DNA of 64,000 nt from Escherichia coli (GTDB lineage Bacteria; Pseudomonadota; Gammaproteobacteria; Enterobacterales; Enterobacteriaceae), in NCBI RefSeq assembly GCF_030013205.1, contig NZ_CP122649.1. One strand, written 5' to 3'. Every line of letters begins with the position of its first letter. The first letter of the stretch is position 1. The position numbers were made by a program. Of the stretch, positions 21,001-24,000 are shown in pieces.

Positions 21001-24000
21001 TACAGTGCAGTCAGGGTGTAACAGGTACGGGTAGTGACCAGGCTATAGCCAGTGGCATTACAGGCAATACAGCGGCTCTTATAAAAGTGATTGCGTTCGC
21101 CACGTCCATTGCATTTATTGCAAGTAACACGGTAAATATATTCCCCGGTGCCTTTTACTGAATCAATACACTTAATCTTAGCGTTATCGATTGCCATTCC
21201 GCTACGGTCAAAGTATTTATCCATTTTTGATTCCTCAGGTTTGGTCTGAAGTAATAATGACAGATTGGCCTCGCTGGCTAATAACCTGAACGAACGTTTT
21301 TTGAAAATAAATCAGGAAGGATGATTGAGATGATTTATATATGCAGGATTCAATTTTAATGGAGGGTATTTTCAGAATTATCTGTTTACAAAAAACGAAA
21401 CAAATCCTAATGAGGCATTTATTGCATCACAATAAAAGTGATTGCTTTTCACTCATTTGAGTAGCGATGCTTAAGTATTTATCCGTTTTAAGGTATAACA
21501 GCAGCGTGATACGGCTCAGGGAATGCCTGTCCGTCACCTTAATGATGCTTTACTTCCGGTTGCCGAAACAGTCCATATGGCTGACATGTATAACACGCAC
21601 GGTCTAACGCAGTTCCGGGGGGTGGCACAGCGGCGTGATGCCGCTTTAATCTGGAAAACGCAGGCATCTACTGGTGCCTCAGGATCGCGGCACTCGCAAG
21701 CTGAAACACCAGAGCCTGTTCGTCTTCCGGCTGTATCGCTCGTCCCCGTCTACAAAACCCGTCTCATCCGCAGGTATCGCTGGCGCACTCCCAGACGGTT
21801 AGAGGCTTTCGGGAACTGCCTGGGTCAAAGAACACCGGCGTTCAGGTAGCTGTTGAAATGGACATCTACACGTTTTTGTTCAAGTGATTCAGTTGTGGTG
21901 AGGGCATAACGGGTAATGCCCTCCCGTGAAGCCCTGAGAAAAGTTACTTTTCCAGGATTAATGCAGTCTTGCTTTTAATATAAATTCAGGGGATATTTTT
22001 TTAAAAAAATACCTGTCGTCAACTTATTAGAAAAGTAAGTCAAAATGCTAGAGTGTTCTCATTCAAAAAGAGGAGAACTAACCATGCCAAAATATTTGTT
22101 ACCTGCCGAGCTTGCGGAAATTGTTTGTGGATTACTGGTGCAACCAGCATTATTGAATGAATTAAAAACACCAGCCACGCATAAAGCATTTATGCAGGAC
22201 ATCGGCGAGCTGGTGGCGAAACATTGCGGCGGTCAAATTGACGGCGTGATCATGCCTGAGGTACGCGATGAAGACAGCCAGGCCGATTACCTGACATCTC
22301 CAGATGAAACCCCTTATATTGTTGTCTCTCCTGGCCAGGACATGCACTCCCTCACAGATAACGTCTGGCGTCATCATGCCCGGGATGGCTGGCTTGACCA
22401 TATCAAAGGCAGTGTCGAAGAAAGCCCTGATGAACTGCCGACCCACAAAGAGTGCGCTGTACGCCGCTACACCCTCCAGCGTCTGCTCCTTCAGGAAGAA
22501 ACCAGCCATGCTAATCTGCCAGTACAGGTGGTACGGATGTGTGAGTACAGCACCGACGATGTTGAGCAGACCGATTCTTCAGCAGAGTTTAACGTCACAA
22601 TGGCGCTCGGTGGTCATGCCATGCTGGCAGTAAAAGATACAGATTCCCGTCTGGTGATGGCCCTGACACTCTTGATTGAAAATGGAGTTCCCTCTGTCCA
22701 CGTTAATGCGGGTGACACTGATCCTTCAGTTCTGCACATCCGGGCAGCTCACGGTGGTCTGGTTCTTTCAACCGACTCCCTTAATCATGATTTCAGTATT
22801 TCGCCCTCTGACCAGTATACCTACGGACGCCCTGGATTATTATTGAAAGCCGCCTACTGATTTATTAATTCAAAATCCGTCATTATTATTTACCCCCATT
22901 TTTCGCCCCTAACTTATGGGGCGAGTATATTTTAAAAAACTTTCTTTCAGGTTATTAGCCAGCAAACTAGAACTGGTAGAATTAATTCATCAGAGAAAAG
23001 GGGACTATCATGGCTAAATTAATTTCGACGCGTGAACTGGCAACAATTATTACTGCATTACTGGTAAAACCAGAATTACTGGGCGAGCTGGATTCCCCAG
23101 AAAAACATCGCGCCCTGATGGAAGATCTGGGGCGTGTTGTGGCAGAGCATTGTGGCGGTAATGTCACTGAAATCGCACTACCGGAGACCGATGGTACGGC
23201 TGCTGAAGGCGCGTTGCAGAATGGCCAGCCCGTCCGCTATCTGGAAACCAAAGAAAGCTCTCCGTATCTCATCGTACACCCTGACGCCTCACTGCCGTCG
23301 GTGACGCAAAACGTCTGGATGCACGCTGATCATGATGGCTGGGAAGAGCATTTCAACGGAGAGACCGATGCCCTGACTCCAGAGATGAGCGAGCAGTTCC
23401 GCCAGCAGGTTTATGCACTGCTGACGCCGGAATCCCATACCACCTCTTCAGAAATGAGACTGACTTTGCAGGACTGGCAACTGGGTGAAGCCGAGATCCC
23501 AGAAGAAGACTGTCAGCCCTACCAGGTGAAGGTGTTAGCAGAAAATAAAAACGTTCAGTGCGAAGTGACGAATGAAACCGGCACCACGTGTTTCGGCCTC
23601 ATTTTGGAGATCGACCGTGGTGTACCGACGCTGCACATTGATACGGGCAGTGATTCACTGCTGCACATTCACGCGGCACATGACGGCCTGGTTCTGACAC
23701 CGGATGCACCGAGCCACAGATTTGAAGATGCTCCTGTAGATCGCTTTTCTTATAACAGCCCGTCCCTGTTGGTGCCTGGGGTGTAACCAGGCAAACTGCC
23801 CAGCGGTATTTTGGCCCCGGGTAAAATTATTCAGAACAGGAGTCAGGCAGATGGGCGATGTTGCCACACTACCACCGAAAATTAACGATGGCGTACTTCG
23901 ACGCTGGAATGCTCGCGGTAAAGCGGATAAAGAGGCGCTGGCCGACTATGGCGTTAGCGTGAAGGAGGAGTGAATTGCGCGAATTACTTGGAATGGCAGG

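Follow-up and report, generated by a model that had tools for sequence, protein, structure and literature searches.

A tandem pair of two-domain paralogs in the IncHI1 plasmid backbone without recognisable relatives in the libraries searched

Introduction

The known anti-defence proteins ArdA, KlcA/ArdB and Lar are small to medium-sized, very acidic, cytoplasmic and plasmid-borne, and their genes neighbour those of orphan methyltransferases, PsiA and Lar in parts of plasmids that lack housekeeping genes. The DUF5983 (PF19419) proteins of CP4-type islands and plasmids, whose gene lies downstream of cbtA, are mobile-element accessory proteins without an assigned function. Here we describe two adjacent genes that resemble both groups in these respects. 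They lie on the plus strand of a 64,000-nucleotide stretch of contig NZ_CP122649.1 of Escherichia coli (assembly GCF_030013205.1), hereafter called the window, which is IncHI1 plasmid backbone, and they encode two proteins of 258 residues each, paralog 1 (22084..22860; WP_001127353.1) and paralog 2 (23010..23786; WP_001096299.1). In contrast to the anti-defence proteins, neither product matches PF07275, PF03230 or PF14354. The C-terminal domain of DUF5983 proteins is fused to the same N-terminal module as that of our pair in three other members of the family (P0040, P0041 and P0117), whereas it is absent from both window proteins, whose own C-terminal domain is a different beta-meander. Since DUF5983 is itself uncharacterised, this link adds no function. 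Proteins with single-layer or meander beta-sheets, such as OspA, the teneurin/RHS shell and phage spike fragments, are among the closest known systems to this type of C-terminal domain.

IncHI1, IncHI2 and IncHI1B plasmids are known for multidrug resistance in Salmonella Typhi, for mcr-1 in E. coli and Salmonella, and for NDM/hypervirulence hybrids in Klebsiella. The segment that carries the pair is 100% identical to S. Typhi pHCM1 and is found, likewise at 100% identity, in over 200 further IncHI1 plasmids from Escherichia, Salmonella, Klebsiella and Citrobacter; the pair is also present in R27. Both coding sequences are called 'hypothetical protein' by the PGAP annotation of pHCM1, R27 and E. 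coli plasmids, and we found no paper on them when the literature was searched by WP accession, motif sequence or R27/pHCM1 open reading frame (ORF) number. Although available to the public since the sequencing of R27 and pHCM1, the two genes have so far received no name, no classification and no study.

Results

Two divergent paralogs with one common fold

A preliminary description of this locus, made from the sequence alone, had presented the two genes as divergent paralogs of the same length class that share three conserved blocks. Both ORFs are indeed found on the plus strand at the coordinates given above with equal lengths, and BLASTP aligns their products over the full length with 83 identities in 262 positions (32%, E 7e-45), an end-to-end match which establishes that the two ORFs are true paralogs. 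The N-terminal block is present in both products (LAEIVCGLLVQPALLNEL in paralog 1, LATIITALLVKPELLGEL in paralog 2), as are HCGG and the remainder of the middle block (NVWRHHARDGW and NVWMHADHDGW). The C-terminal block also exists (LHIRAAHGGLVL and LHIHAAHDGLVL), although its strict form AAHGGLVL has to be relaxed to AAH[GD]GLVL. The start of paralog 1 at 22084 is backed by homologues, by PGAP and by a GAGGAG ribosome-binding site 8 nucleotides upstream of the ATG, and a longer ORF of 271 residues beginning at 22045 was therefore rejected. We likewise rejected as a gene the ORF of 108 residues in the upstream gap (21523..21849), which is unannotated in the records inspected. A 252-residue neighbour in locus L002 was tested as a third paralog and also rejected.

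The preliminary description allowed that structure prediction might reveal no shared fold, but the two AlphaFold2 models display the same succession of helices and strands. Their quality is high for paralog 1 (mean predicted local distance difference score, pLDDT, 91.9; predicted template-modelling score, pTM, 0.77; 150-sequence alignment) and for paralog 2 (pLDDT 92.3, pTM 0.76; 110 sequences). In both, a helix at residues 7-19 and another at 30-48 are followed by a strand at 51-56, a variable loop, a further strand, two to three helices and about nine antiparallel strands. According to these models, an alpha/beta N module of about 135 residues begins with a highly conserved helical hairpin, 50 residues long and closed by C-G-G, and the C-terminal domain (hereafter C-domain) is predicted to be an antiparallel beta-meander of about 110 residues with a small conserved Asp/Glu/His patch. 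The domains correspond to residues 1-135 (22084-22488) and 145-258 (22516-22857) of paralog 1, and to residues 1-138 (23010-23423) and 146-258 (23445-23783) of paralog 2. We conclude that the pair are divergent tandem paralogs with one common fold.

Neither domain has a recognisable relative in the libraries searched (Pfam, NCBIfam, PHROGs, PADLOC, PDB and BFVD). Foldseek returned no match at E ≤1e-3 against PDB and BFVD, the lowest E reached by a profile search among PDB sequences was 0.081, and the best Pfam values for the window proteins, 0.064 and 0.1, both fell far short of the cut-off. Scans of both proteins against NCBIfam, PHROGs and PADLOC were without a match, and library scans of 20 members with variant architectures and of 150 aligned members uncovered no recurring family. 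A cupin or AraC_binding_2-type barrel is not supported either, because the AraC_binding_2 match (E 0.064) reaches 13.4 bits against a cut-off of 27.

A two-domain family carried by large plasmids

When 1.84 billion representatives were searched exhaustively with a profile, 434 family clusters were found at E ≤1e-3, of which 89 remained at E ≤1e-30; word-indexed searches gave just 12 and 32 clusters, and a scan of contigs with a narrow derived peptide pattern found five loci. The architectures of these members speak for modularity. The N module (profile positions 1 to about 135) stands alone in proteins of 130-150 residues, and elsewhere it is joined to the DUF5983 C-terminal domain, as noted above, to a CxxC...CxxC zinc ribbon (P0099 and P0103, in which the Lar-like match is sub-threshold: for P0103, E 0.01 and 16.5 bits versus 28.6) or to long extensions of unknown type (P0119, P0084, P0105 and P0115). 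Conversely, the C-domain (profile positions of about 138 to 252) occurs behind unrelated N-termini in P0140, P0170 and P0096. On the evidence of these architectures, the proteins are made of two separable domains, each of which has other partners elsewhere.

The family was detected by tblastn in 2,441 of the 72,556 plasmids in PLSDB, and the records listed are Enterobacterales plasmids of 170-430 kb; the family plasmids that we inspected were typed as MOBH/MPF_F. It is nearly absent from E. coli chromosomes; of 127 places noted in E. coli, one was chromosomal. Acidity is a further common trait, with isoelectric points (pI) of 4.84 for paralog 1 and 4.53 for paralog 2, a family median of 4.36, and values under 5 in 95% of members. 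In many Klebsiella plasmids (180-430 kb) only an unannotated remnant is present, for example in K. pneumoniae NZ_CP040534.1 at 121073-121258. These remnants match the last 60 or so residues of the C-domain at 50% identity and look like decayed copies of family members.

An old duplication with both copies under purifying selection

In a neighbour-joining tree, paralog 1 genes form one clade and paralog 2 genes another, with the longer branch leading to paralog 1. Two IncHI-like plasmids of greater divergence (L017 and L018) also keep both genes in tandem, whereas about 1,000 IncHI2 records carry the paralog 2 type only, and the single IncHI2 gene is placed inside the paralog 2 clade. This topology indicates one old duplication within IncHI-type conjugative plasmids, after which IncHI2 lost paralog 1. 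The ratio of nonsynonymous to synonymous substitution rates (dN/dS) is 0.20 for each paralog when compared with the 85%-identical, IncHI1B-typed plasmid p34983, and thus both copies are under purifying selection.

Conserved residues and the prospect of an active site

Conserved His and Cys positions had led the preliminary description to suggest a metal-binding or catalytic fold. We therefore determined residue conservation from domain hidden Markov model alignments of 174 members for the N module and 89 members for the C-domain. The strongly conserved positions of the N module are mostly hydrophobic or structural (L17, L18, P21, F36, V44 and W95), and the HCGG block reduces to C48 (94%), G49 (98%) and G50 (96%). 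W95, D99, W103 and R128 are also well conserved, as is the extreme N-terminus (M1 91%, K3 88%). In contrast, H33 and H47 are replaced by Tyr or Phe in about a third of the members, which marks them as aromatic core positions, and we have rejected the N-domain histidines as metal ligands on these grounds. The C-domain conserves D154 (92%), W155 (83%), E197 (83%), G201 (97%), P203 (100%), H206 (87%), H218 (89%), H220 (72%) and G225 (82%), with its histidines forming an H...HxH pattern on two consecutive strands. The original interpretation is thus supported in part, with a common fold in the two products and a metal site that is possible but would be unlikely to involve H33 or H47.

From this Asp/Glu/His set, a His-based metal or catalytic site in the C-domain is possible. 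In its full form this explanation makes the C-domain a metal-dependent binding or catalytic domain, active in paralog 2 and degenerate or regulatory in paralog 1, and we regard it as unlikely, if worth keeping in mind. D154, E197, H206, H218 and H220 are conserved among the 89 bona fide C-domains, and H218 and H220 form an H-x-H on the strand adjoining that of H206. Paralog 2 retains the whole set, and paralog 1 alone departs from it with L197 (a Glu follows two residues on) and R220. We infer that the ancestral patch survives in paralog 2, and that paralog 1 has evolved faster and is degenerate in part. However, no metal-binding family was matched, the best Pfam candidate being the sub-cut-off, cupin-like AraC_binding_2; a simple hairpin register would place H206 on the face of the sheet opposite to H218 and H220; and H223 is conserved in just 40% of members. 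Still less probable is a thiol enzyme in which Cys48 of the C-G-G motif acts as the nucleophile. The near-invariance of these three residues, together with W95, D99, W103 and R128, is what such an enzyme would lead one to expect, but some members have Phe, Tyr or Thr in place of Cys48, and the exchange of the adjacent His47 for Tyr or Phe leaves no conserved Cys-His dyad. Nucleophilic cysteines usually sit at the N-terminus of a helix. In the paralog 1 model, CGG instead lies at the C-terminal end of a helix, where the chain enters a strand, and no hydrolase or transferase family or fold was matched.

Promoters, a terminator-like hairpin and a dispersed palindrome

Each gene appears to have its own promoter. 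Paralog 1 is preceded by an element of the extended -10 type, TTATTAG-N15-TGCTAGAGT (22024..22054, plus strand), and paralog 2 by a promoter block composed of TTTTAAAAAA ... TTCAGGTTATTAGCCAGC ... TGGTAGAAT (22930..22989, plus strand). The unusual block that both have in common, ...TTTTAAAAAA...GGTTATTAGCCAG...N...TGnTAnnnT, is conserved among the IncHI lineages, and the same architecture lies ahead of several further backbone genes. A relaxed form, TTATTAG(CCAG)-N14-17-TGnTAnnnT, occurs eight times in the window versus 0.94 in shuffled sequences; its sites include those of the paralogs (22024-22054 and 22952-22982) and, on the minus strand, 18748-18778, 17875-17906, 8979-9009 and 914-944, and by coordinate estimate the matches other than the paralogs' lie 5' of minus-strand ORFs. 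A closely related block on the minus strand (21247-21306), outside the matches of the regular expression, precedes a divergently oriented gene for a 155-residue zinc-finger protein. The paralog 2 block is 75% identical to the reverse complement of this segment, and the 18-nucleotide core TTCAGGTTATTAGCCAGC is exact in both. Since the block is common to both paralogs and other backbone genes, the pair appears to belong to a co-regulated backbone set, and the sequence pattern suggests an unrecognised regulon under a plasmid-specific factor.

Between the paralogs lies a hairpin that resembles an intrinsic terminator, with an 8-base-pair stem (six GC pairs) and a run of T residues (22902..22925, plus strand), and it is retained in the orthologous spacer of p34983 (L008). 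With a terminator-like hairpin, separate promoters, mutual homology of the genes and no match to a toxin-antitoxin family, we rejected the idea that the pair is a type II toxin-antitoxin system. No Rfam match was found within 20700-25000.

The perfect palindrome reported upstream of paralog 1 is real, but it begins at 21938 rather than 21937. This 15-base-pair sequence, GAAAAGTTACTTTTC (21938..21952), has 7-nucleotide arms flanking one central base, lies 132 nucleotides 5' of the paralog 1 ATG and is one copy of a dispersed, operator-like motif. The pattern GAAAAGTNACTTTTC has six exact and three one-mismatch copies in the window versus 0.02 expected, and the 15-nucleotide copies of GAAAAGTWACTTTTC start at 7601, 13839, 19004, 21938, 36045, 41541, 46373, 49426 and 62624. 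They are mainly intergenic or promoter-proximal with unrelated, unconserved flanks, and the copy 5' of paralog 1 is kept in the 85%-identical lineage (L008/L009). The palindrome has the appearance of an operator bound by a dimeric global regulator; the motif is absent from the literature searched. By analogy with KorB, whose OB operator regulons in broad-host-range plasmids also comprise short perfect palindromes repeated at many promoter-proximal backbone sites, the regulator is possibly the product of a nearby ParB-family gene (38446..39603, minus strand; R0042 of R27). The palindrome itself is, we presume, unrelated in sequence to the RK2 operator OB.

Plasmid context and expression of the pair

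In R27, paralog 1 occupies 63174..63950 and paralog 2 occupies 62248..63024, between Tra2 and Tra1. An anchor for the original R27 ORF numbers is rsp2, 2.4 kb away (26152..28536 in the window, on the minus strand and downstream of the pair), which is R0055 and encodes a 794-residue Ig-like protein required for efficient conjugation (PMC8730810). Its product is a DUF4165-containing protein with reported binding to the conjugative pilus and to flagella. We mapped the pair by counting ORFs between R0055 and R0076 (IS10), and the interval holds 20 PGAP genes and 20 ORFs in the original numbering. From this equal count, paralog 2 is most likely R0062 and paralog 1 R0063, with a possible error of one ORF. 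R0062-R0065 were below the detection threshold of an R27 microarray at 25 °C, at 37 °C and in a de-repressed htdA mutant (PMC7366339, Table S3). With the proviso that the ORF count is correct, the pair appears to be silent in established R27 hosts. The absence of detected transcript despite good promoters is what would be expected of genes that are repressed in an established host.

The zinc-finger protein divergent from paralog 1 (20757..21224, minus strand) has a CxxCxGxG repeat of the DnaJ or anti-TRAP-like type, with weak NCBIfam matches (E about 1e-3). Beyond it, a HigB/RelE-type toxin gene (20397..20693, minus strand) is followed after 8 nucleotides by an ORF of 393 residues without a family match (19207..20388, minus strand), which occupies the place where a small helix-turn-helix antitoxin would be expected. 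Toxin gene and ORF are conserved in IncHI1 and in L017/L018, and they may constitute an atypical toxin-antitoxin or toxin-linked module.

Discussion

Genes next to family members offer clues to function. A gene for an NPPF-motif amino-methyltransferase lies directly downstream of the family member in IncHI2, L017 and L018; at its 3' end P0119 overlaps a gene of the Lar restriction-alleviation type; PsiA is encoded two genes upstream of the member, in IncHI1B/pNDM-MAR-type plasmids only; and C5-cytosine methylases, ART-PolyVal and toxin-antitoxin modules surround P0040 and P0140. Neighbours of the establishment or anti-restriction type are thus present in four or five independent neighbourhoods. 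The orphan DNA methyltransferase, Lar and PsiA genes, along with the apparent silence of the pair, point weakly to a role in establishment or anti-defence. When confinement to conjugative plasmids, acidity and the shuffling of domains behind a constant N module are considered together with these neighbours and this silence, we tentatively favour the view, at somewhat less than even chances, that the pair are accessory proteins of establishment or anti-defence that act by binding. The backbone of the window also carries a cluster of DNA-modification type, with genes for a DUF4942 protein (36506..38260, minus strand), the ParB-family protein mentioned above, a Dam methylase (39962..40786, plus strand) and an 809-residue protein of the PAPS (phosphoadenosine phosphosulfate)-reductase family (13976..16405, minus strand). 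Such a cluster would fit a region devoted to establishment or anti-restriction.

The favoured scheme starts from two genes for soluble, strongly acidic two-domain proteins, derived from one old tandem duplication, each with its own lineage-conserved extended -10 promoter and with the terminator-like hairpin between them. In this scheme they would be kept silent in the established host. The action of the proteins would be non-catalytic: they would bind a macromolecule of the host or of a plasmid and so neutralise it, the most plausible target being a DNA-binding protein of a defence system, for instance a restriction enzyme. The N module could be a common adaptor, in which case the exchangeable C-terminal domain would be the specificity or effector part.

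Several observations weigh against this scheme. Generic anti-restriction genes would not usually be missing from phages, as this family is (0 of 50,697 phage records); the neighbours that speak for the scheme were seen in few independent contexts; and there is no homology to a known anti-defence protein, given that the models for ArdA, KlcA/ArdB and Lar and those of PADLOC were unmatched. Furthermore, the conserved Cys and the His/Glu/Asp patch would fit an enzyme equally well, dN/dS of 0.2 carries no signature of an arms race, the assignment of the pair on the R27 microarray may be one ORF off, and the R27 pair sits in the Tra1-Tra2 intergenic backbone.

Another reading is that the proteins serve conjugation, either as partners of the neighbouring Ig-like RSP2/RSP pilus proteins or as substrates that are carried into the recipient by the type IV secretion system (T4SS) and recognised through the conserved N-terminal hairpin. 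We consider this quite unlikely. Among the plasmids inspected, the family is restricted to MOBH/MPF_F types, the IncHI members adjoin genes for Big-domain proteins with rsp2 close downstream, and a conserved extreme N-terminus with exchangeable C-termini would suit a secreted substrate. However, members outside IncHI plasmids are not beside Big-domain genes, the RSP pull-down, in the accessible text of PMC8730810, names RSP2 and TrhH alone as partners, and the pair is apparently silent at 25 °C, a temperature at which tra genes are induced (PMC7366339). It would also be possible to dismiss the two genes as decaying or functionless selfish DNA, or as spurious or pseudogenised ORFs, given that they are apparently unexpressed in the R27 microarrays and that paralog 1 has been lost from IncHI2. 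This is scarcely credible, because a dN/dS of 0.2 largely refutes it, and intact 258-residue frames in hundreds of plasmids, confident fold predictions, and conserved promoters and ribosome-binding sites also stand against it.

A bolder reading, which we offer as a long shot, is that IncH-type (MOBH/MPF_F) conjugative elements use a family of polymorphic effectors in which the N module, and above all its invariant first 50 residues, serves as an adaptor for delivery or docking. The proteins would then be made, or even injected by the T4SS, at plasmid entry, and their exchangeable C-termini (among them a new His-bearing beta-meander fold, DUF5983_C and Lar-like zinc ribbons) would neutralise different defences of the recipient. 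The IncHI1 pair would in that case represent two specificities side by side.

About 3% of PLSDB plasmids encode this family without a name, a Pfam entry or a structural relative. It is thus a case of plasmid 'dark matter', a real and widespread two-domain family with confident models and no detectable relatives. If the proposed role in establishment or anti-defence is true, the family would help to explain the host range of these plasmids and would count as a new fold among anti-defence proteins. Otherwise, its recognition as a family of two-domain proteins would still tidy the annotation of thousands of entries now called 'hypothetical protein'.

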